From: an uncultured Verrucomicrobiae bacterium
GTDB taxonomy: Bacteria; Verrucomicrobiota; Verrucomicrobiia; Chthoniobacterales; JAFAMB01
Direction of reading: 5' to 3'
DNA: 64,000 bases
Assembly: GCA_963762565.1 (NCBI GenBank)
Contig: CAVXLD010000001.1
Location: forward strand, 992,001 to 1,056,000
In this document: positions 2,048-58,615 of the stretch, one piece after another
How the letters are laid out: every line of letters starts with the position of its first letter
Position numbering within the stretch: the stretch's first letter is position 1
The notes under the pieces: model-generated
What the model saw: only the letters and a program-made list of their open reading frames with translations
Told to the model about the DNA's origin: nothing
Databases searched by the model: none
Program-made: the position numbers and the translations under genes

Positions 2048-4729
2048 CTACCCACTTTGAGAACTAGGTAGCTTGGCTATTCGGCGTGCACTATTTACGG
2101 TGTCAATCTGATCTACCGATTTATCGCGACGAATCGCTTTGATCCGCGGGAATCGCAGAGCTAACCCGCTGGAATGCCGGTCGCTCCGCTGGATGGAATC
2201 GAAAGCCACTTCCAAAACTATCTGGGGTACAACTTCATGCAACCGGCCAATTTTTCGCGTGGTCGTGCGCCGGAAATGCTCGGTCAGTTCCTCAATCTCG
2301 GCATCAGTTAAGCCGGAATAAGCCTTACCGATAGTTTCTAATCTGCCGTTTTCCGAGTTTCGAACGGCAAAAGTGTAGTCACTTAGCACGTGGCTCCTCT
2401 TGCCATGCCCTTGTTCAGCACCCACCACTATCACGTCAAGCGTTGCCAGTTCTCGCTTAAGTTTGATCCAGCTGCCGCCTCGCCTTCCAGGCTGATACGA
2501 ACTACCGGGATCCTTAATCATCAGCCCTTCCGTTCCCAGGTCGCGCGCGGTAAGAAACGCGGTCTCGATCTCGCTGGCCGTGATTACGGGCGTGTTGGGT
2601 AAGAGTTGAATCAAGCTCGGTAAAGAAAGGGATTCCAACAGCGACCGGCGTAATTGCAACGGTTCCTGGACCAGGCTTCGATTGTTCAACAGTAGAAGGT
2701 CAAACACCATAAACGCGATCGGTATGTCATCCGTGTCGAACAAATCGCGCGCCCGCTTGCGACCTAAACGGCGCTGCAGATCGAAGAACGTCAGTTTCTT
2801 GTTCGCATCGAAAGCGATGATCTCTCCATCAAGAATCAGATTTTGCGAGAAGGAGAGTCCCGCCAATTCCGGAAACTGTTGAGAGATATTGTGAAGATCT
2901 CGACTATAAACCTCCACCCTATCCGCAGCCGCATGTAACTGCGCTCGAACGCCGTCAAACTTCTGCTCAGCAAACGCCGGTGTTGAGCTAAAATCGTGTT
3001 TGAGCCTTTCCGCGACCGCTTCTGCTGATGGCTCTGGAATGGCCAGCATTGACATTACGGGTCGGAAAAGAGCGATCTGGGCCGTCGTCAGCAGGTTTTT
3101 TTGGGCTAGCACAGACGTCTCACCCAAATCTCCAGTCAGCATGTGAGCTTCTCTAACCCCCTCGGCCGATCTGGTAAACGCCCGGGCGATGCTCTCTTCG
3201 ACTAAACCTTCCTTCAGCCCAATCCGCAGATCACCGGTCAGAATTCGGATTACATAACTTCCATTCAAAGCATTTGATTGATGCAGCCATTCCGCCAATA
3301 TCGTGGCCTTCGTGGCTGGCCCCCGGGCCTGCTCCAAGCGTTCGAACCAATTTCGCGTCTCTACCAACGAATCGCTTCGAGGAGCAGTCCTGCCCAAGAG
3401 CGCCTCGTAAGCGATCTTCCCAGCGTCTCCGTAAGCCGAAGCGATACGACGAAACTCCGATTCCGTTAATTTGGTAGCCTGTAATAGGCCCTTGCGGATG
3501 ATGGACCAACCAACTTGCAGGGTTCGAGTGTCTGCTCGGGAGAAGGCACGGCCGGTCAGAAATATGCACGCTACCCGCAACTCAGACTCCGGTAGTTGGG
3601 TTAGATATTTTGCCAGTAGCTCGATCTTTTTCAGTTTACCGGTAGAACGTCCGATCTCTTCGCAAAGCTGGGTAAAATCGCCGAAGCTTCCTTCGGTAAC
3701 TGCCTCGACCTCCGGAATTTTAGGGACTGCCGCTACTTCGCGGTTAGCCGGTACCGCAATCGATAGTTCAAGTTGATTGCCTTCTCCCAGAGCCCAAGCT
3801 TCGATTCCTTGACGCCGCAAATCTTCAGCAAATTCGCGTGCGTAACCGTGCACGGTTAGAACTCGCTTTGGCTGAATCAGCTTAACATAACGGATCAGAT
3901 CGGGATAGTCGGCATGATCGGACATGGGAAACGCCGCATCGCATTGGAATCGATGAGCCGCGCCTGGATTCAGTGCCCAACCCGTAAGAATAGCAGTTCG
4001 CCGCGGTTTAATGTTCTGCACTAATCTCGTGCCGTTCGCGTTAGGGGGGAATAGCAGGACGCTGCCGGCCAGATCATCTCCTCGGTGGAGACTGAATGGA
4101 GGTAAGTTGTGAAATTTATCGTTATAGACCTTCGTCATTCGGTAAACGCTGGAATGCAGCCGGACCCGCAAATCGGTACCGTGCAGCGCAGCCAGAATTT
4201 CCTGCGCTTTACCAAGAGAATACCCGAACAGAATAGGGGTAGCACCGTCTTCGATGGTCTCACGACAGAACTTAATCAGGTCGGCAATAACCTGCTCGGT
4301 TGGAGGAAACACGAACCGGGGAAGACCATAGGTAGTTTCCATAACCAAGGTCTGTGCTGGTCGCCAAGCAATCGGCTCCGATGCGCGTCCGGGCCGGAGC
4401 TTAAAGTCACCGGTGTACAATAAGGAGCCGGCCTGATGTTCCACAAACAGTTGAGCGGAACCGTAAATGTGACCGGCGGGCAACAGGGTTAGTTCAGCGT
4501 CTCGGAACGGGAAAGGAGCTTGGTAAGGTAACCGGTGTTCGATCCGATCTCCGGGAAGACGTAGCTCCATTAGTTGCGCCGTGATTTCTGTCAAAATGAC
4601 TTCGCGATGATTACCGATGTGGTCACCGTGGGCGTGAGAAATGAAAGCGGTTGCTTGTTCGTCCCACGGATCAAGCCACAGATCAAGTGATGGTAGGTAA
4701 ATACCCCTTTCGTATTGGACATCGATCAT
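2048..4729 (-). CDS. MBL-fold/beta-CASP exonuclease fused to ATP-dependent DNA ligase
   Basis: N-terminal SHAHGDH, AGHIYGS, YTGD, METTYG, SDHAD; C-terminal ligase motifs EQKFDG, LDGEI, EGLMIK, WIKLK, LRFPRI. Confidence 0.93.
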   Translation of the reverse strand: MIDVQYERGIYLPSLDLWLDPWDEQATAFISHAHGDHIGNHREVILTEITAQLMELRLPGDRIEHRLPYQAPFPFRDAELTLLPAGHIYGSAQLFVEHQAGSLLYTGDFKLRPGRASEPIAWRPAQTLVMETTYGLPRFVFPPTEQVIADLIKFCRETIEDGATPILFGYSLGKAQEILAALHGTDLRVRLHSSVYRMTKVYNDKFHNLPPFSLHRGDDLAGSVLLFPPNANGTRLVQNIKPRRTAILTGWALNPGAAHRFQCDAAFPMSDHADYPDLIRYVKLIQPKRVLTVHGYAREFAEDLRRQGIEAWALGEGNQLELSIAVPANREVAAVPKIPEVEAVTEGSFGDFTQLCEEIGRSTGKLKKIELLAKYLTQLPESELRVACIFLTGRAFSRADTRTLQVGWSIIRKGLLQATKLTESEFRRIASAYGDAGKIAYEALLGRTAPRSDSLVETRNWFERLEQARGPATKATILAEWLHQSNALNGSYVIRILTGDLRIGLKEGLVEESIARAFTRSAEGVREAHMLTGDLGETSVLAQKNLLTTAQIALFRPVMSMLAIPEPSAEAVAERLKHDFSSTPAFAEQKFDGVRAQLHAAADRVEVYSRDLHNISQQFPELAGLSFSQNLILDGEIIAFDANKKLTFFDLQRRLGRKRARDLFDTDDIPIAFMVFDLLLLNNRSLVQEPLQLRRSLLESLSLPSLIQLLPNTPVITASEIETAFLTARDLGTEGLMIKDPGSSYQPGRRGGSWIKLKRELATLDVIVVGAEQGHGKRSHVLSDYTFAVRNSENGRLETIGKAYSGLTDAEIEELTEHFRRTTTRKIGRLHEVVPQIVLEVAFDSIQRSDRHSSGLALRFPRIKAIRRDKSVDQIDTVNSARRIAKLPSSQSG

Positions 4730-5775: not shown

Positions 5776-5805
5776 TTGACACAAAAAGAGCAAATTACGT
5801 ATATT
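5776..5805 (+). promoter_or_regulatory. sigma70-type promoter for the STAS-rsbU-grpE-dnaJ operon
   Basis: TTGACA (5776-5781), 18-nt spacer, TATATT (5800-5805), just upstream of in-frame GTG 5815. Confidence 0.6.
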
Positions 5806-5814
5806 CAAGGGTCT

Positions 5815-6330
5815 GTGAGTTTACCAGCTTCCATACTGGTAGGGGTGACCGGGAACGCGGTCTACATCAAGGTGCGGGGCAAGGGTTCCTTTCAAAATAG
5901 TCCGGCCCTAAAGGAGTTCGCGCGCCAAATGCTCGAACGCGGTCATCGCGTTTTCGCGTTTGACCTGAGCGAATGCACTGTGATGGACTCCACCTTTATG
6001 GGAACCCTGGCTGGCATGGCGCTCCGGCTACGCGAATGCGGCGGCACCCTGCTAGTGCGCAATGTTAACGAGCGCAATTTCGAGCTTCTACGCAATTTGG
6101 GGTTAAACAACCTGTTTCAGGTCGAGCCGAGTTCCGAGTTGCTGCCGTCCGGGGCAGCCAACGGCGAATCCGCGCTGGAAACCGAAAACGATCTGAGCCG
6201 ATCCGAACACGCAGCATGCATGATCGAAGCTCATGAAGCTTTGGTGGACGCTGCTCCGGAGAATCTTGCGCGCTTCAAGGATGTTCTGGAATACCTCAAA
6301 CAAGACTTGCGCACCGGGGCTGCCAAGTAA
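5815..6330 (+). CDS. STAS-domain anti-sigma factor antagonist
   Basis: FDLSECTVMDSTFMGTL phosphoacceptor motif and LLRNLGL. GTG 5815 preferred over TTG 5776, which overlaps the -35 box. Confidence 0.88.
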   Translation: MSLPASILVGVTGNAVYIKVRGKGSFQNSPALKEFARQMLERGHRVFAFDLSECTVMDSTFMGTLAGMALRLRECGGTLLVRNVNERNFELLRNLGLNNLFQVEPSSELLPSGAANGESALETENDLSRSEHAACMIEAHEALVDAAPENLARFKDVLEYLKQDLRTGAAK

Positions 6331-6340
6331 CGGTGGATAG

Positions 6341-7777
6341 ATGTCGTCCATCCTGCTCACCGGGCTGGTCATCGTACTAGCTATTGGTTGGGCGTTCTCT
6401 GTCAGAAAACAACAACGCACCATCGCCCAACTGAAGCATGCTCGGGAAGAGCTTCAGCTGGAAGAGAGCCGCGTTTTTGATTTTCTGCACGGGTTAGGAG
6501 CGGCGTTTTCCGATGACGTGCATCCATCGGATTTGCATCGCTTGATCGTGGAAGGCGCGATGCGCATCATCGACGCGCATGCCGGAGCTCTTTATCTTTC
6601 GGATCGGACCGGCAAGATGCTGTTGCCGACCTTCATCTCCCCTGGATGTCCACCGCTAGTCGAGGTGCCAAAGTCCATTTTGGTGCAGAGCGGCACCAAC
6701 CCTTCCGCGATCGACAGTTTTTTACGTCTCCAACCGGTAAAGGCGGGCGAGGGACTCTTAGGGATGGTCTGGGAAAAACGGGAACCAGTTTTCTTGTCCA
6801 GCAATGATGATGACTCTCGTCTAGCCAGCCTTAAAAGCAGCACCCAACAGATCGATTCGGTCATGGTTGCTCCCCTGCTTTACGGAGACCAAAATTTAGG
6901 TGTTTTAGCGGTTGCCAATGGCCCCATGAGCACGCCGTTCTCACCTCCCGATTTCATCGTTTTCCAATCGATCGTAGAGCAGTCGGCGTTTGCGCTGTGC
7001 AATGCCATTGTCTACTCCGAAGCAGCAGAAAAACGCCGTATCGATCGGGATTTGAACACCGCTCGGGATATCCAACGAATTTTACTCCCTGCGGCCCCCC
7101 CTGATCTTCCCGGATACGAAATCGCAGGCGTGAATATCCCAGCCAGCCAGGTAAGTGGGGATTATTACGACTACATTCCCATCGCGGCCGATCGGTTTGG
7201 GATAGCGATTGCCGATGTCTGTGGAAAGGGTGTACCTGCCTCGCTAATTATGGCGATGTGCCGCAGTGTTCTCCGGTCGGTGGCCCCGTCGAGTTCCTCG
7301 GCGGCAGGGGCCCTTCATCAGGTGAATCGGCAACTGTACCCGGACATCAGGGAGGACATGTTTATCAGCATGGCATATCTTATTCTGGAAAAATCCAGCG
7401 ATCACCTGCTGCTGGCTCGCGCCGGCCATGATGCTCCGCTCCTTTACCGAGCAGCCGACAAATCGGTCCAAAAGGTCAACCCGCCCGGTATGGCCCTCGG
7501 AATTGACAGCGGGGGCGTTTTCGATAGGGTGACTGGCGATTTTACGGTCCACGTGGAGAGTGGGGATTGTCTGATTCTCTACACTGACGGAGTGACCGAA
7601 GCGCTTGACACCAATGGCATAGAATTCGGGATTGCGAGATTGATCGAGGTGATCCAAGGCAGCGCCGACGAAAGCGCACAAAGGGTCGTCGCTGAAGTGA
7701 CCGAAAAAGTACGGGCCTTCGTCGGCACCCAAGCTCAGAACGACGACATTACCTTGGTCGCCATTCGGAAAGTATGA
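6341..7777 (+). CDS. Membrane-anchored GAF + SpoIIE/PP2C phosphatase (RsbU-like)
   Basis: N-terminal TM, GAF region, VSGDYYD, IADVCGKGVPA, AGH, LYTDGVTEA, QNDDITL. Confidence 0.92.
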   Translation: MSSILLTGLVIVLAIGWAFSVRKQQRTIAQLKHAREELQLEESRVFDFLHGLGAAFSDDVHPSDLHRLIVEGAMRIIDAHAGALYLSDRTGKMLLPTFISPGCPPLVEVPKSILVQSGTNPSAIDSFLRLQPVKAGEGLLGMVWEKREPVFLSSNDDDSRLASLKSSTQQIDSVMVAPLLYGDQNLGVLAVANGPMSTPFSPPDFIVFQSIVEQSAFALCNAIVYSEAAEKRRIDRDLNTARDIQRILLPAAPPDLPGYEIAGVNIPASQVSGDYYDYIPIAADRFGIAIADVCGKGVPASLIMAMCRSVLRSVAPSSSSAAGALHQVNRQLYPDIREDMFISMAYLILEKSSDHLLLARAGHDAPLLYRAADKSVQKVNPPGMALGIDSGGVFDRVTGDFTVHVESGDCLILYTDGVTEALDTNGIEFGIARLIEVIQGSADESAQRVVAEVTEKVRAFVGTQAQNDDITLVAIRKV

Positions 7778-25960: not shown

Positions 25961-26033
25961 GGGGTCTTAGCTCAGTTGGTAGAGCGCCTCAATGGCATTG
26001 AGGAGGTCAGGGGTTCGAATCCCCTAGGCTCCA
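25961..26033 (+). tRNA. tRNA-Ala(GGC)
   Basis: Cloverleaf with acceptor GGGGTCT/AGGCTCC including G3:U70, anticodon loop ATGGCAT and GTTCGAAT T-arm. CCA tail not encoded. Confidence 0.97.
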
Positions 26034-40960: not shown

Positions 40961-42359
40961 ATGAAGGATGGACTGAAACCAGACAGGCGACTAATTCTTG
41001 GACTCGGAGTGGTTCTTATGTTTTCCCAAGCCCGTCTTTATGCCGGTGACGGAACCGCTGCTGCAGCCCAAGCCCACGTCGAGCCCGGCAACCTACGAAC
41101 CCTTGATACCGGTTTGTTCGACGCGTTCAAACAAGCGTTGACCAGCCCGCCTATACACCGCCTGAACCGGGATCACACCAACTCAACGACATGGCGCTTA
41201 TCCGTCGCCTTTCGATGATCCGCCATTCTTTACTCAGACTACCAGGTTGGCGGCACTCCCGTTATCGGCGATCACAACGAGGCCACTCTCTGGCCTTTGA
41301 TGAAGGCGATCTATGGGAGCGGAACCTTCGGGCAATGGCTGAAGGACAACCGCATCAATCTCTATGGCTGGGTGGAAGGAGGGTACAACGTCAGCTCTTC
41401 GAGTCACTCAAACGTCCCAGAGGCCTACGATATACGACCCGATCAACCGGAGCTGACCAGGCCGTTGTTTACCTCGAACGCTTGCCCGACGAATTCCAGA
41501 CAGATCATATGGACTGGGGCTTTCGCGTCTCTGCGATGTACGGCCTAGATTACCGGTTCACCATCTCCAGAGGCCTCTTCAGCTCGCAGTTGCTAAAATA
41601 TAACGAGAAGTACGGCTTCGACATGCCGATGATCTATTTCGACTGGTACATCCCGGGGTTTTTCGACGGAGTGAACATTCGAATCGGCCGGTACATTTCT
41701 CTTCCCGATATCGAAGCCCAGCTCGCCCCGAACAACCCGATGTATACTCACTCGCTTCTTTACACGTTCGATCCGTTCACCCAGGAAGGGATCATGACGT
41801 CGATTAAGCTGAGTCCCAATTGGACCTTTCAATTCGGAGTTAGTGCGGGTAACGACCAGGCAATCTGGGATTCTCAGCGAGGCTAACCGGCACGGTAATG
41901 CTGCAATGGATCTCCTCTACCAATATGGACTCTGTGTACATCGCAGTAATTCGTTCAATGACGGTGAGTACTCTTACAACAATCTTCAGGACTACGTCGC
42001 AACCTGGACGCACAAGTTCAATGATATCGTCAATACGCAAACCGAGGCCTGGTTCATGTACATGAAGGGCGTACCGGGAATCGGCTGGTCGCCTGAATGG
42101 GCCGTGGTCAACTACACCTTCTTCCGGGTATCGAAGAACGTTTTTTTCACTGTCCGAAACGAGTACTTTGACGATGCCTCAGGCCAAAGAACCGGCGTAA
42201 AAGACGTCTATTCCGAGCACGCGATCGGCTTCACCTGGTGGCCAAACAGCATCACCACTATCCGGCCGGAGCTCCGCTTTGACGCGCCTATCAGCGAGAA
42301 GCCTACGACAATCAAACCGCAAGAACCAGTAATACGTCGACATGATCGTGCATTTCTGA
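40961..42359 (+). pseudogene. Outer-membrane beta-barrel (BBP2/DUF1597-like porin) broken by many frameshifts
   Basis: Fragments in different frames: signal peptide; INLYGWVEGGYN; DQAVVYLERLP..DWGF; NPMYTHS; RNEYFDD..GQRTG; IRPELRFD; ends DMIVHF* at 42359. Similar to the intact neighbour. Confidence 0.8.
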
Positions 42360-42406
42360 TTTGGCGCCACAACCTCTTCGCAGGGCAGAGCAGGGCAGAC
42401 ATACCA

Positions 42407-42431
42407 GTCCGGGGCGCTCAGCGCCCCGGAC
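42407..42431. terminator. GC-rich hairpin between convergent porin genes
   Basis: GTCCGGGGCGC-TCA-GCGCCCCGGAC, perfect 11-bp stem, no strong U-tract. Confidence 0.45.
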
Positions 42432-42446
42432 CCATCTTCTCACTCA

Positions 42447-43730
42447 CTAAAACTCCAGGATGATGTCGAGCCCCAGAGTCCATTGACTCTGAGACGAGCC
42501 CTGAGCGAACGGTTGGCTGTTGTTCAACGCCCGGTCGTAGCGTGCTTCAGGTCGAATCAACAGACCAGCTAGCGGTTTAGGCACCGGAGGTTTAATGGTA
42601 ACGCCCAAAGTCGTTTCGAAATACGTCGTGTTCCCACCACTGTAGTCACTTGGGTCAGACGGAATTGGGTCTCCTCGCTCAAGATGAATGAAATCGTTGT
42701 TATCCGCAAATTCGGCTACGAAGAAACCCTTGTCATCCCGCCAGATCTCACTTCTAAGGCCAAGGGTTAACCAGTCGTTAACTGCGTAAGTAAAATATTG
42801 AGCAACACCGCCGGCCCAGGCATTTACCGATGCCTCGTAGACGAAGTTAATATCAGTGATCCAGGTTAAAGCTTTCGTTACCTTCCAGGTGGTTGTTATA
42901 TCATTTAAATAGCGATAGTCATGATTGTTGCCTGGGTCTTCCGGTCCGATGTGAGTCAAAGCGACGGTAGCCAAATTTCCATCCAGCAGGTTCAAGCCGA
43001 AACCTCCTTCAAAGGCAAGGGAACTATTATTGTCTTTGAAAGTGGCGTTCTCACCTCGATTGAGTCCGCCATACAAGTCGAGGTATTTGTTGACGTGAAA
43101 AATGGCGAGGAACCCGGTATCAGTAGTTGGCACGCCAAAGTTAAAGATGTAGCTGTGCGAATAGAATACGTTGTTCCGCGGATCGATGGTTTCAGCGCTC
43201 ATAGGGTCGGCATATTTTCCGACTTTGAGGTCGAGTCCTCCGGTCGTGCCGATCGGGATGTGCGCACTGACATAAACTTCAGGAAAATCCGGCTGTATCC
43301 GAGAGTCGGTCGCTAGGTCCAGAAGTCCCATCGACTTTGTATAACGAGAATCGCTTCCTTCCATGAACCAAGCCTTGAAGCCCCAATCAAAGCCGGTCGC
43401 GTTCGGATCTAAGGCACGTTCCGCGACAATTGAGACTTGGTTCAAGAGCGGTTCGTTTGCCCGATCTGTATACAAATGCCCAAAGTTATGGTTATCGATT
43501 GGCGAATCCGGGTTTCCCGTAATTCCTCCCTCAATCCAGCCGTAGAGTTTGAATCGGGGCTCTGGCGGCTTCGGCGTTTCGACTGCCTTCTTTCCATCCT
43601 TTACTGCTTTACCGTCTGGCGCCGGCGAGGGTGAAGTTGCCACGGTCTGGCTAAAGGCCGGCGGACAAAAACTTAAAACGCACAGCAGCCCGAAGGCAGC
43701 CGCCGCAGCACGTCGTTGTGCGACTCTCAT
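42447..43730 (-). CDS. Outer-membrane beta-barrel protein (BBP2/DUF1597-like porin)
   Basis: Signal peptide, KLYGWIEGG, FDWGFK, NVFYSHSY, IRPEARYD, terminal Phe. Confidence 0.85.
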   Translation of the reverse strand: MRVAQRRAAAAAFGLLCVLSFCPPAFSQTVATSPSPAPDGKAVKDGKKAVETPKPPEPRFKLYGWIEGGITGNPDSPIDNHNFGHLYTDRANEPLLNQVSIVAERALDPNATGFDWGFKAWFMEGSDSRYTKSMGLLDLATDSRIQPDFPEVYVSAHIPIGTTGGLDLKVGKYADPMSAETIDPRNNVFYSHSYIFNFGVPTTDTGFLAIFHVNKYLDLYGGLNRGENATFKDNNSSLAFEGGFGLNLLDGNLATVALTHIGPEDPGNNHDYRYLNDITTTWKVTKALTWITDINFVYEASVNAWAGGVAQYFTYAVNDWLTLGLRSEIWRDDKGFFVAEFADNNDFIHLERGDPIPSDPSDYSGGNTTYFETTLGVTIKPPVPKPLAGLLIRPEARYDRALNNSQPFAQGSSQSQWTLGLDIILEF

Positions 43731-43861
43731 GAATTGATTTCTTTCCAATGATATAGAGGCGGCTCAGATCCTATGCTAAAGCCGCTGTTGGTTAAGGTGG
43801 TTAAGGCTAAGGATGAATCCCTTTGGAGACTGACAACTATGTTTTACCCGAATGCCCAGAC

Positions 43862-44175: not shown

Positions 44176-46011
44176 TTATGCGTTGGACGGCACCAAGACA
44201 GATTTTGCCTTCTTTTTACTGGCGCCCAAGAAATAGAACGCGCCGTAGAGACCCCAAACCGCAGCAATTGCTAGCGCCACATAAGGCTCCTTAAAACTCA
44301 TGCCCGCGACCGAGAACGGTCCGATCAAGTAGAAGAGCATACAAAGCAGATTCGCGACCAGACCGAACACTGGCACCACGACGTGCTTAAATCCATGGAA
44401 GGAGTGATGCTCCCGAAAGGCAACAATCGCCAGGATACAGGTCATCATGTAGAGCAAGAACGTACCGAAGTTGCTCGTCAGTGTGATGATGAGCAAGCTT
44501 TGCGGTATGTTAACCGCCATGTCATGAGGCCAGACACCGAACGAATACCAGAAATTCTTCGGAAGGGCGTTGATTGCGTCCGTGGTTTGGGCAGCTCCGC
44601 CGCAGAAGTAGAAGATTACTCCAAAGATACCAATGATGATCGAGATAATGGCTAACGTCCAAATCGACCGGTACGGTGTCAGGTTTTTCGGATGGAGCAC
44701 ACCCAGGTTACCAGCGAGCTCGTCGTCGCGACCCATAGCGTAGGTGACGCGCGCTCCGGTGTTAATACACGCCAGGGTTGTACCGATGAGTGCAAGAAAA
44801 ACGGTGATTGCTTGGATGAACATGAACCACCATCCCGCTTGCGCGCTACCAAAAACCCAGGTGCCAACGATCTGCATCATATCTCCGATCGGCGCCGGCG
44901 ATGCGGAAGCTGTCGTGGCCGTGTAACCGCTGTTCAAAAAGAAGTTCGCTCCAAAATATTCGAACAGGTAACAGAATGCGCCCTGAATCGCGAGCGATAG
45001 CAGCACAGCTCGAGGGATATCCCGCTTGGCGTTCTTCGCCTCTTCACCCATCGACGTAACCGATTCGAATCCGACGAGAATGAGAATAGCAATACACGCC
45101 TGGACGAATACAAAACTGAATCCGTGCGGAGCAATCACCGAAGCCGCATCAGGATGAAACTCAAAAGTATCCGCCGGATTCTTTGGGTCGCTCCCTTTGT
45201 CGACGGCGTGATCCGGCGCATAGGTCAGGGTGTAATCTTTGTCGGTGCCGTCAGCATTTTTTTCGAAGACGAAATTTCCGTCTTTATCCTTCACCGGACC
45301 CGTGGTTTCGACCCCTTTATCATCCTTGGTTGTCGCCGTCGCGATCACCTTTGAAATCGGGGTTCCGTTCGGATCCAGCGTGATCCCTTTTGACCCCTCC
45401 ACGTGATTTATGCGATACGCAATCGCAATCACTGTGAATACGATGAGCGCCGAGATCTGGATCACATTGATGGCGAGGTTCACCGCGGTTGAGGCGTTCA
45501 CCCCGGAATAAGCAATCCATCCCACAAACAACGGGAAAACGACACAGAACAGGATCATCAAAACCGGACTCGGTGTCGCCGCGCTGAACACGCTGGGAAA
45601 TAACTGGCCAGCGAGATATCCGACCAGCAGTGCGGTCACGGTCACCATCACTCCCGGGTATACCCAGTAGTAGAGGTGACTGGCCCAGCCCACGGTAAAC
45701 TTCGCAATCCGAGCGAACTTGAAGGCTTTCGATTTCGATAGGAAAGCCTGTTCGGCGAAGAAGTACGATGATCCCGCGCCGGGATACAGTTTAGAAAGCT
45801 CGGCATAAGAGATGGCCGTCGCGAAACAAAGCAACAGCGCCAATAAAATGCCGAACCACATCCCAATTGCGGCCATAGGTTGGCCGTAGAGACATTGTTG
45901 AGCAAAGGTCAACCAAAGGAATGCACCAGGCGCAATCAGTGCCATGGCATTCACGGTTAGACCGGTTAAGCCGAGAGTCGGCTTGGTTTGAGGTGCAGGG
46001 GTTTCTGACAT
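44176..46011 (-). CDS. APC family amino acid/amine permease
   Basis: About 12 TM; SYAELSKLYPGAGSSY, VGFES...GEEAKNAKRDIPRA, ARVTYAMGRD; large extracytoplasmic loop. Confidence 0.9.
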   Translation of the reverse strand: MSETPAPQTKPTLGLTGLTVNAMALIAPGAFLWLTFAQQCLYGQPMAAIGMWFGILLALLLCFATAISYAELSKLYPGAGSSYFFAEQAFLSKSKAFKFARIAKFTVGWASHLYYWVYPGVMVTVTALLVGYLAGQLFPSVFSAATPSPVLMILFCVVFPLFVGWIAYSGVNASTAVNLAINVIQISALIVFTVIAIAYRINHVEGSKGITLDPNGTPISKVIATATTKDDKGVETTGPVKDKDGNFVFEKNADGTDKDYTLTYAPDHAVDKGSDPKNPADTFEFHPDAASVIAPHGFSFVFVQACIAILILVGFESVTSMGEEAKNAKRDIPRAVLLSLAIQGAFCYLFEYFGANFFLNSGYTATTASASPAPIGDMMQIVGTWVFGSAQAGWWFMFIQAITVFLALIGTTLACINTGARVTYAMGRDDELAGNLGVLHPKNLTPYRSIWTLAIISIIIGIFGVIFYFCGGAAQTTDAINALPKNFWYSFGVWPHDMAVNIPQSLLIITLTSNFGTFLLYMMTCILAIVAFREHHSFHGFKHVVVPVFGLVANLLCMLFYLIGPFSVAGMSFKEPYVALAIAAVWGLYGAFYFLGASKKKAKSVLVPSNA

Positions 46012-46028: not shown

Positions 46029-46044
46029 AGCAGCAGTCATGCCA
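46029..46044 (-). promoter_or_regulatory. sigma54-type promoter of the APC permease
   Basis: Minus strand TGGCATGACTGCTGCT (GG-N10-GC). Confidence 0.65.
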
Positions 46045-51160: not shown

Positions 51161-51610
51161 ATGTCCACCTCTCCATCCGAAGCCATCGCGCTAGTCCGGG
51201 AAGCAAAGGGAAAAAAAGGTCTGACCTGGGAGCAAATTGCGCAGCATGTCGGGCGCTCCCCTGTGTATATCACTTCAGCGTGTCTGGGCGAAAATAGCCT
51301 AATCCCGGAAGACGCCCAAAAGCTTGGCGCGCTCCTCGATCTGGGTCCGGACCTGGTCGCCCTCCTGCAATCCTGTCCTAAGAAGGGCTCAAGATCGCAG
51401 GACATTCCCAAGGACCCCCTGATGTACCGGTTCCATGAGATTAACTTGGTCTACGGAGATACGCTTAAAGAGTTGATTCACGAGAAATTTGGAGACGGGA
51501 TCATGAGTGCGATCGATTTCACGATGGACGTCGAGAAAGTGGAGGATCCCAAGGGAGACCGGGTCAAAGTGACGATGTGCGGCAAGTTTTTGCCTTATAA
51601 GAAGTGGTGA
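51161..51610 (+). CDS. cynS: Cyanate hydratase (cyanase)
   Basis: DPLMYRFHE, EKFGDGIMSAIDF, GKFLPY. Confidence 0.96.
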   Translation: MSTSPSEAIALVREAKGKKGLTWEQIAQHVGRSPVYITSACLGENSLIPEDAQKLGALLDLGPDLVALLQSCPKKGSRSQDIPKDPLMYRFHEINLVYGDTLKELIHEKFGDGIMSAIDFTMDVEKVEDPKGDRVKVTMCGKFLPYKKW

Positions 51611-51615
51611 GAGAG

Positions 51616-51836
51616 AGGAGTCAGGAGCCAGGAGAAACGAGCGGGCGAAACGGCGAATGGGCGATTCGAGGCGCAAAGCGCTGGGCAGATTTTAGCCTGG
51701 CTGGCTGCTTTTTTGGAATGCGTACCTAGGACTCGCAAGCTCATCCGAGGGCTGCCGGACTAGGGTTTCCTTCCAGCGCTTTGCGCCTCGAATCGCCCAT
51801 TCGCCGTTTCGCCTACTCGCCCACTCCTGGCTCCTG
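51616..51836. repeat. Perfect 41-bp inverted repeat (GGCGAAT/A units) inside CAGGAG-type arms
   Basis: 51644-51684 is the exact reverse complement of 51773-51813; outer arms AGGAGTCAGGAGCCAGGAG and CTCCTGGCTCCTG. Confidence 0.87.
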
Positions 51837-51954
51837 TCTTAAAACAGCCACCTCTGACCAAGCCAGAGGCACCACGTGGTCTTTTCTTCCCATCGTAATA
51901 GTGAAAAACCTGGCACTTACTCCCACCTCCTCGGTCGATCCCATTTGGATGACC

Positions 51955-51970
51955 TGGCATAGCAGCTGCT
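51955..51970 (+). promoter_or_regulatory. sigma54-type promoter of PII-glnII
   Basis: TGGCATAGCAGCTGCT (GG-N10-GC). Confidence 0.65.
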
Positions 51971-52177
51971 AACGTAAGCATTGGCTTCATTCGGGGGGAG
52001 GTCCGAATGTATATCGCGCGTAAGGAGAGGCCGGTTGAAACGGCGACGGGAAGAAGGGGTCGATCAACTTGAGCTGAGGGTGCGTGAAGTCTCTGGCGAG
52101 GAAGTGGGCTTGGAGGGAGCACCACTTCCTCGCTCCTCTCTGTTAGACGCGGTCAGGCACGGCGCAAAGTTGCCCGC

Positions 52178-52513
52178 ATGAAAAAAATTGAGGCGATCAT
52201 AAAGCCTTTCCAGCTAGAAGAAGTCAAATCCGGTCTTGCCGAATTGGGGATCGAAGGTATGACCGTTACCGAAGTCAAAGGGTTCCCCGTAGCTTTGGTT
52301 GAGCAAACAACCTACACAGGCCTGGGGGCTCCTCGTTTCTTACCCAAATTAAAAGTAGAACTGGTCGTAAGAAACGATTTGCTTGGCTCAGCGATTGCTG
52401 CCATTAAGGAATGCGCCCGCTCGGACCGAAATGACAACGGGAAAATTTTTGTGCAGGACCTCCTTGAAGTAATCCGTATTCGGACGGAAGAGCGCGGAGA
52501 ACGGGCGATTTAA
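52178..52513 (+). CDS. P-II family protein with non-canonical T- and B-loops
   Basis: MKKIEAIIKPF, GMTVTEVKGF, FLPK, GKIFV, IRIRT match GlnB/GlnK; loop sequences differ. Confidence 0.9.
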   Translation: MKKIEAIIKPFQLEEVKSGLAELGIEGMTVTEVKGFPVALVEQTTYTGLGAPRFLPKLKVELVVRNDLLGSAIAAIKECARSDRNDNGKIFVQDLLEVIRIRTEERGERAI

Positions 52514-52571
52514 CCGGTACTCCTGCGACCCAATTCTCAAAGGCGAGCTAGCCTTTTCTAGAACTCAAATC

Positions 52572-53594
52572 ATGGCGAAATATAAATTGGAATACATCTG
52601 GCTAGACGGCTATGCGCCGGTTGCCAATATCCGCGGGAAGACCTTAGTTAAGGACTTCGAAACCTTTCCTACTTTGGAGCAGATACCAAACTGGGGATTC
52701 GATGGCAGTTCTACAAGGCAAGCCGAGGGACATAGTTCCGACTGCGTGCTGAAGCCGGTGGCCGTTTATCCCGACAAAACGCGGGTGAACGCGGCGGTTG
52801 TGATGAACGAAGTTTTGCACCCCGACGGCACTCCTCACTCAACCAATGCCCGTGCGACGATTCTGGATGATCCGGATACCTGGTTCGGCTTCGAGCAGGA
52901 ATATTTTTTGTGGAAAGACGGCCTGCCCCTTGGCTTCCCTAAAGCTGGGTTTCCCGATCCACAAGGTGAATATTATACCGGTGTCGGTTACAAAAACGTA
53001 GGTAATATCGCGCGCGAGATCGTCGATGCTCACCTCGATCTTTGTATTGCCGCCGGCATTAACCACGAGGGCATCAATGCCGAAGTGGCCAAAGGCCAAT
53101 GGGAATACCAGATCTTCGGCAAAGGCTCCAAAACTGCCGCGGATCAAGTGTGGGTAGCCCGGTATCTGTTGGCGCGGCTGTGCGAAGCTTACGAGGTGGA
53201 AGTTCAATTGCATTGTAAGCCGATCCTGGGCGATTGGAACGGTTCCGGGTTCCATTGCAATTTCTCGACCAAATACATGCGGGAGGTTGGTGGTAAAGAA
53301 TATTTCGAAGCGCTTATGGCTGCGTTCGACAAGTACAAGAACGAACACATCGCGGTTTATGGACCGGACAATCATCTGCGTCTGACCGGTCTGCACGAGA
53401 CACAATCGATTGACAAATTCAACTACGGCTTGGCCAATCGCGGCGCATCCGTTCGCGTGCCGCATAGCTTCATAAATAATGGTTATAAGGGCTATCTTGA
53501 AGACCGGCGTCCGAACTCCGCCGGGGATCCCTACAAGATCGCCAGCCGCATTTTGCAGACGATCGCAACGGTCCCGAAACCCAACGGTGCTTAA
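52572..53594 (+). CDS. glnII: Glutamine synthetase type II
   Basis: 340 aa; LEYIWLDG, WGFDGSST.QA, WFGFEQEY, GINAEVAKGQWEYQ, DWNGSG.H, GYLEDRRP. Confidence 0.95.
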   Translation: MAKYKLEYIWLDGYAPVANIRGKTLVKDFETFPTLEQIPNWGFDGSSTRQAEGHSSDCVLKPVAVYPDKTRVNAAVVMNEVLHPDGTPHSTNARATILDDPDTWFGFEQEYFLWKDGLPLGFPKAGFPDPQGEYYTGVGYKNVGNIAREIVDAHLDLCIAAGINHEGINAEVAKGQWEYQIFGKGSKTAADQVWVARYLLARLCEAYEVEVQLHCKPILGDWNGSGFHCNFSTKYMREVGGKEYFEALMAAFDKYKNEHIAVYGPDNHLRLTGLHETQSIDKFNYGLANRGASVRVPHSFINNGYKGYLEDRRPNSAGDPYKIASRILQTIATVPKPNGA

Positions 53595-53732
53595 GCAGTA
53601 GGTCGGGTCAGGCCCCGAAAAAATTTTGCGAATCGGCATCGTGGGGGGACGGATTTGTCCGGCGCCGCCGGATTCGCCGAATCCTTCCGCACTTGTGCGC
53701 CGCGGCGTGGCGGCGCATTTTGAGCGGTCCGC

Positions 53733-54146
53733 ATGCTGGAAGTGAAAGATACGTTGAGGGCCACCGTCCGTCTCAGTTACGACGGGCGGGTCTATAAGAC
53801 TTTTCACGGCCCGGACTCCCAAGAGCGCTTTAACAACGAAGTCCGGGTGCTTCGTCATCTCGAGAAGCAAAATTGTAACTTCGTGCCCAGGTTACTCGAG
53901 GCAAATCCGGAACTGCTCCGAATCGTCACAACAAACTGCGGTGCACGAGTCGAGCATTTGGATAGGCAGCGCGCCGGTGAGATTTTTGCGGAATTGGAGC
54001 CATACGGCGTGCACCACGAGGACGCTGAGGTGCGCAACATTACCTATCGACAAACCGATGGACGCTTTTGCGTAATCGATTTCGAGTTCGCGACGATTCT
54101 TCCCGGCTTCGAAGAAGCTGCCAATGGATCACGATCATCTCAATAG
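53733..54146 (+). CDS. Minimal protein-kinase-like (PKL fold) protein
   Basis: VYK (beta3 Lys), NNEVRVL (alphaC Glu), VPRLL, HHEDAEVRN catalytic loop, VIDFE metal motif. Confidence 0.75.
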   Translation: MLEVKDTLRATVRLSYDGRVYKTFHGPDSQERFNNEVRVLRHLEKQNCNFVPRLLEANPELLRIVTTNCGARVEHLDRQRAGEIFAELEPYGVHHEDAEVRNITYRQTDGRFCVIDFEFATILPGFEEAANGSRSSQ

Positions 54147-54981
54147 TCCAAACAACGAATCGATTTCACATCGCCTGCAATGGTGGGGAGCTACTGATCG
54201 CGGCAAGATTCGTTCGAACAACGAGGATTCGTTCTTGGGTTTGCAGCTTGACTCCAGAGAGGTCCATCATCTAGGACGGCACGGCGAAGCATCGACGGAA
54301 ACCACTGATCTCGCCTTCGCGGTAAGCGATGGAATGGGCGGCGCTACCGCCGGAGAGTTCGCCAGCAGGATCACCGTGGATCGGGTAACCCATCTCCTCC
54401 AGCGGTCGTTCAAACAATCCGCCGTTGGCATCGAAACTTATTTTGCTGACGTGTTTACCACTCTTTTTGACCAGATTCATCAATCGTTGACGCTGGTTGG
54501 GGAGAGTTATGCGGAATGCTTCGGCATGGGAGCGACCCTGAGTATCTGCTGGTTCAGCCGCGGCTGGATGTATTTCGGGCATATCGGCGATAGCCGTGTT
54601 TACTATTTGCCCGCCCAGGAAAGAGTTATACGACAGATCAGCCACGATGATACCCATGTAGGCTGGCTCCGCCGAAACGGCGATATCAACGAGCGCCAAG
54701 CTCGGACTCATCCGCGCCGGAATGCGCTCCAGAAGGCTCTAGGCGCTGGCAACCAATTTGTCGATCCTCAGGTGGGCGCCGTCGCCTATGAAAGTGGCGA
54801 TCTTTTTCTGCTCTGCACCGATGGTCTAGTCGAAGGACTTTACAATGACCAGATTCTAGAAATTCTGCGCTCTCCTGAAGCTCTGCGCCTGGACCGAAAC
54901 GTCGCCCAGTGCTTGGTTCAAGCGTCATTAGAAGGTGCAGGCAGCGACAACACGACTGCGCTAGTCATCAAGGTGCTCTGA
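54124..54981 (+). CDS. PP2C/PPM Ser/Thr protein phosphatase
   Basis: R.NNED, VSDGMGG, GATL, HIGDSRVY, LCTDGL, SDNTT. Confidence 0.93.
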   Translation: MDHDHLNSPNNESISHRLQWWGATDRGKIRSNNEDSFLGLQLDSREVHHLGRHGEASTETTDLAFAVSDGMGGATAGEFASRITVDRVTHLLQRSFKQSAVGIETYFADVFTTLFDQIHQSLTLVGESYAECFGMGATLSICWFSRGWMYFGHIGDSRVYYLPAQERVIRQISHDDTHVGWLRRNGDINERQARTHPRRNALQKALGAGNQFVDPQVGAVAYESGDLFLLCTDGLVEGLYNDQILEILRSPEALRLDRNVAQCLVQASLEGAGSDNTTALVIKVL

Positions 54982-55191
54982 ACCAGGGCAATTTCGCCGA
55001 CCAAAAAAGCAAGACAATCTAACAGAAACCACGCATAAAATGTCGAGCGACGAAAAGGAGCATACTTTTTGCTGCATGCAAGGTTTTGTAGTTGCTAAAT
55101 CCTTGCGCGCTCATTCCACAACATGCAGTTTCGCAACAAACACCTCCAAAAAAGAAGCATACAAAATATAAATAACTGATAACTAGCATTT

Positions 55192-56601
55192 ATGACACCA
55201 GCTGAAGTAACCCAACTCATCGAAAAACAGGGCATCAAGTTAATTGATTTCAAGTTTGCTGACCTTCTTGGAACTTGGCAGCACTTCACCACGACGCTTA
55301 CTGAATATAGCGAAGATCTTTTCACTGACGGCCTCGGATTCGATGGTTCGAGTATTCGTGGCTGGAGGGTCATCAATGCCAGCGACATGCTGGTCATCCC
55401 CGACCCAGACACAGCTTGGGTGGACATCTTCAATGAGGAGCCGACGCTGAGTTTCATCTGCACCATTGAGGATCCTATCACTCGTGAGCCTTATGACCGC
55501 GACCCGCGAGGTGTGGCCGAGAAAGTCGAGGCCTATTTAAAGAGCACCGGAATCGCGGATACAGCGTTTTTCGGCCCGGAGGCTGAGTTCTTCATCTTCG
55601 ATGATGTTCGCTACGACTATACGGCTAACTCATCGTTTCATTCCGTAGACAGCGTTGAAGGCATTTGGAACTCAGGCAGAGAAGAGTTTCCTAACCTTGG
55701 CAATAAGATCCGCCACAAGGAAGGTTACTTCCCGGTTGCTCCGACCGACACTCTCCAGGATATCCGCAACGAGATGTGTCTGGAGATGGAAAAAGCGGGT
55801 ATCCCGATTGAGCGCCAGCACCACGAGGTCGCAACCGCAGGCCAAGCTGAGATCGATATCAGGTTTGCTCCTCTAAAACAGATGGGTGACCACATGATGT
55901 ATTACAAGTACATCACCAAGAACGTCGCCAAGAAGTATAACAAAGTCGTGACGTTTATGCCCAAACCGCTCTTCGGCGACAACGGGTCGGGTATGCACAC
56001 CCATCAATCGCTCTGGAAAGATGGTAAGCCGTTGTTTGCCGGTGATAAATACGCGGGATTGAGCGAAACCGCTTTGTTCTACATCGGCGGGATTCTCAAA
56101 CACGCCCGAGCCCTAACTGCATTCACTAACCCGACCACGAACAGTTATAAGCGGTTGGTTCCCGGATTCGAAGCTCCGGTAAATCTTGCTTACTCCGCCC
56201 GGAACCGATCCGCGGCCATTCGTATTCCTACTTACTCTCCGAATCCGAAAGCCAAAAGAATCGAGTTTCGTACTCCGGATCCCGCCGCTAACCCTTACAT
56301 CGCCTTCGCGGCGCTGCTGTTGGCCGGTTTGGACGGTATCCAGAACCGAATCGACCCGGGCGACCCACTTGATAAGAACCTTTACGAGCTTCCGCCGGAA
56401 GAACTCGCCAAGGTGCCTAGCGTACCCGATTCGCTAGCCGGCGCATTGGACGCCTTGGAAGCGGATCATGAATTCCTGCTCAAAGGCGATGTCTTTAACA
56501 AGGACTTCATCGGTAACTGGATCGAGATGAAAAAGAAGGAGTACGACGCCCTTCGTCTGCGTACGCATCCGTACGAATTCTTCATGTATTTCGACCTGTA
56601 A
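55192..56601 (+). CDS. glnA: Glutamine synthetase type I
   Basis: [51 protein letters not shown]; adenylylation-site motif NLYELP. Confidence 0.97.
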
Positions 56602-56627
56602 GCCTAACAACCCAAGCTTATTTGCAG

Positions 56628-56660
56628 AAAGCGCCCGGATTTCCGGGCGCTTTTTTGTTT
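56628..56660 (+). terminator. Rho-independent terminator after glnA
   Basis: AAAGCGCCCGG-ATTT-CCGGGCGCTTT followed by TTTGTTT. Confidence 0.88.
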
Positions 56661-57031: not shown

Positions 57032-58615
57032 ATGGCTAAAGGCTATTTCGCACTCTTGCTGCATGCCCACCTCCCCTTTGTAAGGCATCCGGAGTACCCA
57101 GACTTCCTGGAGGAAGACTGGCTTTTCGAGGCCATCACCGAGACCTACATCCCGCTCTGGCAGGTCTTCGAGGGACTGACTCGCGACGGGGTACGGTTTC
57201 GCCTGGCCATGTCAATGACGCCCACGCTCTGCGCCATGCTGGACGATCCGCTGCTGCGAGCGCGGTATCTGAAATATTTGGATCGCGCGATCGCGCTCTC
57301 AAAAGCAGAAATCGATCGCACTCAAAACCAACCCGACTTTAATCACCTCGCTCGCTACTACCACAGCCGTTTTCTCGAGTGCAGGGAAATCTACGTCGAC
57401 CGTCTCAGATGCGATTTGGTTGGCGCTTTTCGCCGTTTCCAGGAAGCCGGGTTCATCGAGATCATCGCTTGCACCGCGACCCACGGTTTCCTCCCCCTTC
57501 TTGAGCGATATCCTAAAAGCGTCTGGGCTCAGATCGCTATCGGCCGGGACGCTTACGTCAACTCATTCGGTTGCGCGCCTAAAGGAATCTGGTTGCCGGA
57601 ATGCGCTTATCACCAGGGCTTGGACCAGCAACTGCAGGCAGCCGAACTTCGCTGGTTTGTCTTAGATGCTCATGGACTGATGTTCGGGTCTCCGCGTCCG
57701 CGCTATGCCATCTATGCACCCTGCTTTACCCAGGCAGGGCCCGCGGTTTTCGGACGAGACAGAGAATCCAGCAAACAAGTCTGGAGCGCCCAAGAAGGTT
57801 ATCCCGGTGACCCAGCTTACCGGGACTTCTATCGCGACATCGGCTTTGACCTCGACTTGGACTACCTTCGCCCCTTTCTGCCGGACGATGGTCACAGAAA
57901 ATTCACCGGTATCAAATACTACCGGATCACGGGGCGAACCGCTCACAAGCAATCGTATGTCCCAGGTTGGGCGCAGGGAGCGGTGGATCATCACGCGGGG
58001 GATTTCCTTACCAGTCGCGTCAAGCAAATCGAGCATTTGGCTGGCATCACCAATATCAAACCAATCATCGTCTCTCCCTTTGATGCAGAGCTCTTTGGTC
58101 ATTGGTGGTATGAAGGTCCCCAATTTCTGAATTTGTTCATTCGGAAGGCGGTCTACGACCAAACAACCTTCGAATTGATCACTCCAAGCGATTATTTGGA
58201 AAAACATGACACCCTGCAGGTCATTTCACCTAGTCCTTCAAGTTGGGGAAACCGCGGCTTTTGGGAGGTATGGCTGGACGAAAGCAACAGCTGGATCTAC
58301 CCCCATTTGCACGCCGCCGCTCGCCGGATGACCGAGTCTGCCGAGGCGGTAGAAAAGACGCCCGCAAAATGGAAAGAGCGAGTGCTACGCCAGCTGGCCC
58401 GGGAGCTACTCCTGGCGCAATCCAGCGATTGGGCATTTCTAATGAGGACCGGTACCGCGAAAGACTACGCTGCTATGCGGACGAAGACTCATATTCTGAG
58501 ATTTACTCGAATGTACGACCAACTTCGAGGCGGAGTGATCGACGAAGGATTTCTCGCGAATTGTGAATGGCGAGACAATCTGTTCCCGGAGTTACAGTGG
58601 AAATATTATTTATGA
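57032..58615 (+). CDS. GH57 1,4-alpha-glucan branching enzyme (with DUF1957)
   Basis: LHAHLPFVRH, ETYIPL, GIWLPEC, PFDAELFGHWWYEG, RELLLAQSSDW. Confidence 0.93.
   Translation: MAKGYFALLLHAHLPFVRHPEYPDFLEEDWLFEAITETYIPLWQVFEGLTRDGVRFRLAMSMTPTLCAMLDDPLLRARYLKYLDRAIALSKAEIDRTQNQPDFNHLARYYHSRFLECREIYVDRLRCDLVGAFRRFQEAGFIEIIACTATHGFLPLLERYPKSVWAQIAIGRDAYVNSFGCAPKGIWLPECAYHQGLDQQLQAAELRWFVLDAHGLMFGSPRPRYAIYAPCFTQAGPAVFGRDRESSKQVWSAQEGYPGDPAYRDFYRDIGFDLDLDYLRPFLPDDGHRKFTGIKYYRITGRTAHKQSYVPGWAQGAVDHHAGDFLTSRVKQIEHLAGITNIKPIIVSPFDAELFGHWWYEGPQFLNLFIRKAVYDQTTFELITPSDYLEKHDTLQVISPSPSSWGNRGFWEVWLDESNSWIYPHLHAAARRMTESAEAVEKTPAKWKERVLRQLARELLLAQSSDWAFLMRTGTAKDYAAMRTKTHILRFTRMYDQLRGGVIDEGFLANCEWRDNLFPELQWKYYL

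Follow-up and report, generated by a model that had tools for sequence, protein, structure and literature searches.

A minimal protein-kinase-like protein paired with a PP2C phosphatase and linked to the type II glutamine synthetase gene in Verrucomicrobiota

The 64-kb window analysed here, a stretch of 64,000 nucleotides (nt) from an uncultured Verrucomicrobiae bacterium (contig CAVXLD010000001.1, positions 992,001 to 1,056,000), contains a glutamine synthetase gene cluster in which the gene for a minimal protein-kinase-like protein, here called the mini-kinase, overlaps the gene for a PP2C Ser/Thr phosphatase, 3' of glnII, the gene for type II glutamine synthetase (GSII). As judged from comparison of related sequences, the mini-kinase and the PP2C constitute a conserved two-enzyme unit, translationally coupled or fused, that recurs beside glnII. 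The pair is tentatively read as a dedicated writer and eraser of phosphate, with GSII as the most probable substrate.

Conservation of the kinase/phosphatase pair and its linkage to glnII

A genome scan with a 15-sequence kinase alignment as the query found relatives in at least 585 of 597 candidate stretches of species-representative genomes, and genomic context was taken from the 80 most similar loci, in which the kinase is 66-86% identical to that of the window. The PP2C gene lies directly 3' of the kinase gene in 77 of these 80 loci, the three exceptions comprising two contig ends and one rearranged locus (L037) with the PP2C gene divergently upstream. The two genes are split in 76 loci, in 23 of which there is a 4-nt overlap between the kinase stop and the first in-frame start of the PP2C gene, and fused in one (L055). 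Among representatives of about 400 amino acids (aa), 12 of 13 are fusions of an N-terminal mini-kinase and a C-terminal PP2C, and a search for longer proteins returned 797 matches, with the PP2C_2 Pfam domain present in 119 of the best 120. Alignment of the fused proteins displays both catalytic sets intact, with invariant D/G motifs at the PP2C metal site and a variable linker of about 15-40 residues; in the predicted model of a fused protein both domains are confident and the linker, residues 126-136, is disordered (predicted template modelling score, pTM, 0.67).

A kinase-domain tree computed with FastTree (128 sampled rows, 57 fused and 71 split, drawn from 129 and 149 eligible sequences; 130 columns) is poorly resolved, and requires 14 changes between the fused and split states, four of them forced by well-supported branches. 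Repeated fusion and fission of this kind is classical evidence that the kinase and the PP2C act together, and with at least four well-supported changes, the fusions and the near-constant adjacency, the pairing proposed in an earlier note on this DNA stands. The window, with its overlapping genes, represents one point on this fusion/fission continuum. The phosphatase belongs to the PPM/PP2C family according to Pfam (PP2C_2, 62.7 bits, cut-off 24; PP2C, 23.7 bits, cut-off 20.3), remains below the Stp1 equivalog cut-off (169 bits, cut-off 230), and has as solved relatives PstP (E 6e-26), 2j82_A (E 2e-21) and Stp1 (E 9e-17).

The linkage to nitrogen genes on which the earlier note's proposal hinged extends to other genomes. 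Within 700 base pairs (bp) of the kinase gene, glnII is found in 55 of the 72 loci that have at least 1400 bp of upstream sequence, in three arrangements: (i) divergent, in 53 loci; (ii) co-oriented upstream, as in the window, in L001; and (iii) downstream, in L037. It lies 1.4-7 kb away in 4 more of the 72, and four further divergent cases occur in loci with shorter flanks. In addition, a glnK-amtB pair converges on the PP2C gene in 25 of the 63 loci with at least 3600 bp downstream. Other than glnII, the recurring neighbours are AmtB (21 loci) and PII (20 loci), with no other real family in more than five of the 80.

In the window itself, five open reading frames (ORFs) follow one another on the + strand (51955-56660), encoding a PII-like protein, GSII, the mini-kinase, the PP2C and the type I glutamine synthetase (GSI), and lie behind a sigma54-type motif, as the earlier note had described. 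Its reading of the kinase and PP2C ORFs as overlapping also proved correct, the two sharing 23 nt (54124-54146) in different frames. The features are as follows.

51955..51970, + strand: sigma54-type -24/-12 element TGGCATAGCAGCTGCT, ending 208 nt 5' of the ATG of the PII-like gene
52178..52513, + strand: PII-like gene, 111 aa (Pfam P-II, PF00543, E 9.4e-23)
52572..53594, + strand: glnII, type II glutamine synthetase, 340 aa (NCBIfam GlnII NF041605, 374 bits, below the equivalog cut-off of 500; best solved relative 4bax, E 5.9e-90, residues 4-334 aligned)
53733..54146, + strand: gene for the mini protein-kinase-like protein, 137 aa, of which about 125 form the core (Pfam APH, invariant residues, fold matches)
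54124..54981, + strand: PP2C (PPM) Ser/Thr phosphatase gene, 285 aa (PP2C_2, E 4.7e-17)
55192..56601, + strand: glnA, type I glutamine synthetase, 469 aa (TIGR00653, 665 bits, cut-off 429)
56626..56655, + strand: intrinsic-terminator-like hairpin and T-run (13-bp stem with 8 G-C pairs), closing the cluster

Compared to this arrangement, the closest of the 80 loci, L001 (kinase 86% and GSII 93% identical), displays the order DoxX-glnII-kinase-PP2C-unknown-MFS, with neither PII nor GSI. Real GSI (glnA) matches are absent from all 80 related loci, and within 8 kb of the kinase none of them has a member of the atypical PII subfamily represented in the window, the best PII match being 56% identical. 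Among these loci the adjacency of glnII is widespread, and neither GSI nor the atypical PII is linked to the pair; the conserved core therefore appears to be formed by glnII with the kinase and PP2C genes, and the PII-like gene and glnA on its flanks to be peculiar to the lineage of the window. As a whole, the five-gene module of the earlier note is not conserved.

The mini-kinase and its fold

APH (PF01636) is the sole Pfam family above its cut-off for the mini-kinase (29.4 bits, cut-off 23.2), and covers only the catalytic core, profile positions 139-199 of 239; the Bud32 model TIGR03724 of NCBIfam gives 24 bits, below its cut-off of 125, and a sequence search against solved structures returned nothing significant (best E 0.24). 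Relatives of similar length are numerous, with 7,979 of 8,000 scored candidates at E <= 0.001 (clusters at 90% identity), the best 120 of which are 73-95% identical; the family is nevertheless compact, a library of 1.84 billion representatives containing only 293 clusters at the 50% level. As sampled, the family carries source labels from Verrucomicrobiota, plus one Planctomycetota label. Two other readings were considered and set aside: small phage kinases score 0.95-0.96 in the atlas, compared to 0.99 for the Verrucomicrobiota clusters of the family, a distant fold resemblance only, and a defence-system reading drew from PADLOC just a 13-bit match for the kinase and a 22-bit match for the PP2C.

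Alignments place the start of the protein at Met1, the upstream extensions of some gene calls not being conserved, and the conserved region stops near residue 125, the protein ending about 10 residues past the DFE motif. In 69 sequences, K22, E36, H95, D97 and D116 are invariant, with N102 (at least 90%) and E118 nearly so; the catalytic elements comprise the beta3 Lys, the alphaC Glu, an HxD-x4-N loop and DFE (D116) replacing DFG, that is, the catalytic residues of the protein-kinase-like superfamily. On the other hand, residues 1-21 lack the GxGxxG of a Gly-rich loop, and both the activation segment and the C-lobe (alphaF onward) are missing, the model stopping one strand after DFE.

The AlphaFold model of the mini-kinase (predicted local distance difference test, pLDDT, 92.1; pTM 0.85) best matches the RNA kinase Ark1 from Geoglobus acetivorans (8yv4_A, 171 residues; E 2.2e-7, 28% identity, query-normalised template modelling score 0.65), followed by PRPK/Bud32, Rio2, CK2 and other kinases, with E values from 2e-7 to 1e-4. 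The passages of PMC9095486 that describe ArkI attribute to it HGQ instead of HRD, DFE instead of DFG, and C-terminal helices, namely an ArkI-specific alpha6 and a long alpha7 with a YKR motif, proposed for RNA binding. The window protein shares DFE with that description, displays H95-E-D97 and has neither the C-terminal helices nor the YKR motif. With HxD kept and the C-terminal helices lacking, it is therefore filed under neither ArkI nor Bud32 and is treated as a separate minimal branch of the protein-kinase-like superfamily.

The match to Ark1, the common DFE and the APH assignment would all suit a non-protein substrate, either RNA, as for ArkI, or a small molecule, as for the APH family, in which case the pairing with the PP2C would not represent a protein phospho-cycle. 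This is nevertheless highly improbable, given the HxD in place of the HGQ of ArkI and the absence of the elements tied to RNA binding in the sections of PMC9095486 concerned, together with a PP2C whose fold matches protein Ser/Thr phosphatases and a genomic context of nitrogen assimilation rather than tRNA maturation.

The small protein might instead bind or hydrolyse ATP as a regulatory domain that gates the PP2C according to energy or nitrogen status, another kinase making the phospho-substrate. Bud32/PRPK and Rio2 are among its fold neighbours, the substrate-binding C-lobe and the activation segment are absent, with the protein ending soon after DFE, and the protein is an obligate partner of the PP2C, paired with it or fused to it, all of which such a gate would accommodate. 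Against it stands the full phosphotransfer set, including Asp97 and Asn102, invariant or nearly so, although an ATPase needs the same set and the residues do not discriminate; moreover, where a kinase is encoded beside a PP2C, the usual logic is that of writer and eraser. An ATP-dependent gate is considered quite unlikely, and the small protein is putatively a protein kinase rather than an ATPase.

Candidate substrates, promoters and neighbouring genes

The preferred reading, a dedicated phosphate cycle on GSII, is favoured because the adjacency of glnII is strong and persists in the three arrangements, and because other kinase/phosphatases dedicated to a single enzyme are likewise encoded next to it, such as PpsR by ppsA and AceK in the ace operon. 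For GSII itself, the aligned relatives are 79-93% identical. In the proposed mechanism, (i) the mini-kinase would phosphorylate GSII and the PP2C would remove the phosphate; (ii) the cycle would tune GSII activity after changes in nitrogen supply; and (iii) the pair would thereby do for GSII what adenylylation by GlnE does for GSI. We infer both the direction and the signal of this regulation. The missing C-lobe and the obligate pairing further suggest that the PP2C, or its N-terminal extension, might complete the kinase or present the substrate in place of that lobe.

Canonical GlnK constitutes the principal competitor of GSII. The pair would then act on Ser49 of its T-loop, as a verrucomicrobial counterpart of the cyanobacterial PII cycle, with the PP2C in the role of PphA and the mini-kinase in that of the PII kinase. 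The glnK-amtB pair lies just 3' of the PP2C gene, in convergent orientation, in the 25 loci mentioned above, and in some loci, e.g., L040 and L067, it is present with no glnII nearby. Among the PII matches in the related loci, 31 of 38 carry the identical T-loop stretch IYRGSEYTVD (Ser49, Tyr51), which we take to be the cyanobacterial type of T-loop, and the solved structures that best match the PP2C include 2j82, 2xzv and 2y09 (E 2e-21), presumably all of the cyanobacterial PII phosphatase tPphA. A PII with the same RGSEY T-loop and its Tyr51 would, on the other hand, also be expected under uridylylation by GlnD. The search for the kinase that phosphorylates PII goes back decades, and relevant passages of PMC4285133 (2015) and PMC10651672 (2023) describe the cyanobacterial enzyme as unidentified, those of the latter presenting SpkB merely as a candidate. 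The linkage of glnK-amtB (25/63) is weaker than that of glnII (55/72), and at no locus do glnK-amtB and the pair share an operon; the PP2C resembles PstP more closely than it does the tPphA-type chains, in line with a generic phosphatase; and the atlas search returned no cyanobacterial relatives of the kinase, a point on which the representative library, having no taxonomy, says nothing. On balance, GlnK is less likely than GSII to be the substrate and nevertheless constitutes a serious rival.

Besides GSII, the earlier note had looked to the Thr-containing T-loop of the adjacent PII-like protein, or to GSI, as the target. The gene order invites this reading, the PII-like gene and glnA flanking the pair in what is apparently one transcription unit between the sigma54-type element and the terminator. 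The PII-like protein matches the Pfam P-II family and falls short of both NCBIfam equivalogs for canonical PII (101 and 88 bits, cut-offs 202 and 181). It represents an atypical subfamily, about 118 of 120 listed clusters being 58-95% identical and some labelled Chthoniobacterales, in which the body is highly conserved, K58 and the RxR motif are kept, and R38/Q39 are missing. The subfamily alignment displays a hypervariable T-loop (residues 37-53) with no conserved position, and Thr44, Thr45 and Thr47 of the window protein are not kept even in relatives that are 86-93% identical. A regulatory phosphosite is expected to be conserved, and the T-loop of the atypical PII is therefore an unlikely phosphorylation target; its divergence suggests that this PII may no longer sense or signal through the T-loop. 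GSI is likewise unlikely as a target, with no glnA linked to the pair in any of the 80 loci, and it bears an NLYELPPEE motif, presumably its adenylylation site. The arrangement of L001, with glnII, kinase and PP2C and neither PII nor GSI, points the same way. Modification of the adjacent PII T-loop or of GSI is accordingly most improbable of all, and the writer/eraser idea of the earlier note survives with GSII or canonical GlnK as its likely target.

A further divergent group of PII proteins, with 42-44% identity to the PII-like protein of the window, is encoded about 2.8 kb beyond glnII in four loci (L002:3582-3917, L003:3618-3953, L007:3571-3906 and L012:3637-3972). It retains GRQKG (ARQRG in L012), and the distal half of its T-loop is variable.

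The sigma54-type motif noted upstream of the cluster is real, the strict pattern TGGCAY-N5-YTGCW having three matches in the window compared to a shuffle mean of 0.28, with three reached in 1 of 100 shuffles, and it is conserved before glnII in the relatives. Among 57 divergent glnII-kinase intergenic regions, the strict motif aims at glnII in 39 and at the kinase gene in none, and a looser GG/GC pattern aims at glnII in all 57 and at the kinase gene in six. The strict motif stands 85-149 nt before the glnII start in these regions, and L001 has a sigma54-type element 135 nt before glnII. The GG-N10-GC signature of a sigma54-type element thus occurs at a conserved position upstream of glnII, and by this comparison glnII of these organisms carries a conserved sigma54-type promoter element, beyond a chance match. 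The earlier view of the motif as heading the kinase module does not carry over to the relatives, where the promoter serves glnII and not the kinase operon; in the window cluster the single sigma54-type element is the one before the PII-like gene. Neither rpoN nor an enhancer-binding protein gene is present within the window, and NtrC-type palindromes are rare in the 57 divergent regions (TGCAC-N5-7-GTGCA, 0/57; GCAC-N5-9-GTGC, 2/57). Between glnII and the kinase gene of the window, a G+C hairpin of 9 bp (about 53695-53718), followed by UUUUG with only four U, lies about 15 nt before the kinase start codon and may act there as an attenuator or a weak terminator; the 138-nt spacer as a whole folds no better than shuffled sequences (z = -1.33).

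Several observations weigh against a phosphate cycle on GSII. In 13 of the 72 informative loci no glnII is found in the fetched flank, the upstream genes there being heterogeneous and mutually unrelated, and only one fused form, L055, was seen with its context, glnII lying 1.8 kb off. The kinases of the 80 loci are similar enough (66-86% identical) that the adjacency of glnII may partly reflect shared ancestry, and the kinase operon of the relatives is not under the sigma54 promoter of glnII. The RGSEY T-loop of the neighbouring GlnK would be an equally plausible phospho-acceptor. At the level of the enzyme, the mini-kinase has no counterpart of the lobe with which ordinary kinases bind their protein substrates; Ark1, closest to it among solved structures, phosphorylates tRNA; and Bud32 and RIO proteins mostly work as ATPases.

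A more ambitious formulation, which we consider doubtful, is that of a new covalent-modification cycle for GSII or for Ser49 of GlnK, in which a kinase-like domain, maybe the smallest catalytically complete one, works only when docked on or fused to its eraser phosphatase, the two forming a two-domain machine that responds to a nitrogen signal. A bolder version would have AMPylation in place of phosphorylation, yielding a GlnE-like adenylylation cycle built from unrelated folds; some kinase folds are able to AMPylate (SelO), and a PP2C fold is able to de-AMPylate (SidD).

Other features of the window were recorded alongside the cluster. Upstream of the sigma54-type element TGGCATAGCAGCTGCT lies a cyanase gene (51161-51610), and between its stop codon and the element there is a long inverted repeat (51619-51839), comprising main arms at 51638-51684 and 51773-51819 (47 nt, 96% complementary, 88 nt apart) that are extended by a second arm pair at 51619-51634 and 51824-51839. 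The arm sequence has no further copy in the window, and the repeat could be an insertion resembling a miniature inverted-repeat transposable element, a large hairpin or terminator that follows cynS, or a binding region that serves the sigma54 promoter from upstream. An Rfam scan of the window gave a single tRNA (25961-26033) as its sole match, with no glutamine riboswitch and no glnA RNA. On the 3' side, a GH57-type branching enzyme gene (57032-58615) adjoins the cluster, as a similar gene adjoins the kinase in L030 (3-1445), probably as leftover synteny.

A second strict sigma54-type element, TGGCATGACTGCTGCT (46029-46044, - strand), is located 18 nt 5' of the gene for a 611-aa amino-acid permease (44176-46011), and L005 displays a permease-Usp fusion beside glnK-amtB; together they hint at a wider, putatively sigma54-controlled set of nitrogen genes. 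Elsewhere in the window, a gene for a STAS-domain protein (5776-6330) is followed by one for a GAF-SpoIIE/PP2C phosphatase (6341-7777), an apparent partner-switching pair with no relation to the kinase/PP2C finding. In an 893-aa protein (2048-4729, - strand), a metallo-hydrolase RMMBL segment at the N-terminus is joined to a complete ATP-dependent DNA ligase. Three ORFs at 41191-43748 match the BBP2 beta-barrel porin family, and the two short ones (41191-41886 and 41843-42463) align to consecutive stretches of the profile, where a frameshift may have divided what was a single gene.

Significance and relation to known systems

Kinase/PP2C pairs and the covalent control of glutamine synthetase are already known as kinds. 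As far as could be seen, the minimal kinase family, its recurrent fusion to a PP2C and the tie to glnII had not been described, and a search of open-access full text in PubMed Central and bioRxiv found no paper linking glnII or glutamine synthetase to a PP2C/kinase pair in bacteria. To our knowledge, next to nothing has been established about how type II glutamine synthetase of bacteria is controlled after translation. The gene pair, compact, highly conserved and phylum-wide, offers a cheap and concrete candidate both for this question and for that of the PII kinase. The structural interest lies in a kinase-like core that keeps every catalytic residue, has no substrate-binding lobe and is repeatedly fused to the opposing phosphatase. 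Verrucomicrobiota abound in both soil and water, and a distinct nitrogen-assimilation switch, if true, would bear on their response to ammonium.

The closest known arrangements are the Hanks-type kinase and PP2C pairs Stk1/Stp1, PrkC/PrpC and PknB/PstP, which likewise comprise adjacent, often overlapping kinase and PPM genes and act as writer and eraser; the PP2C described here is of the Stp1/PstP type. At about 125 aa, the mini-kinase is much smaller than a Hanks domain (about 270 aa), and the Gly-rich loop, the activation segment and the C-lobe are all missing from it. Unlike the Hanks pairs, the order is kinase then phosphatase, membrane and PASTA sensor parts are absent, the two enzymes are often one polypeptide, and the pair is tied to glnII. 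In terms of fold, ArkI/Ark1 (COG2112, AQ578 family) and Bud32/RIO are nearest, being small kinase-like cores as well; the neighbours of the mini-kinase in the related loci are glnII, PP2C and glnK-amtB, with no KEOPS or tRNA context.

The cyanobacterial PII Ser49/PphA cycle has in common with the present system a PP2C in nitrogen control and the RGSEY T-loop of the nearby GlnK, and differs in that the strongest linkage of the verrucomicrobial pair is to glnII, not to PII. Finally, GlnE (acting on GSI), AceK and PpsR/PDRP, the last encoded by ppsR next to its target gene ppsA and divergently transcribed, have unrelated folds and chemistry, and the target proposed here would be the type II rather than the type I glutamine synthetase; the proposed logic is nonetheless the same, a reversible covalent modification that a dedicated bifunctional or paired enzyme carries out on an enzyme of central metabolism.

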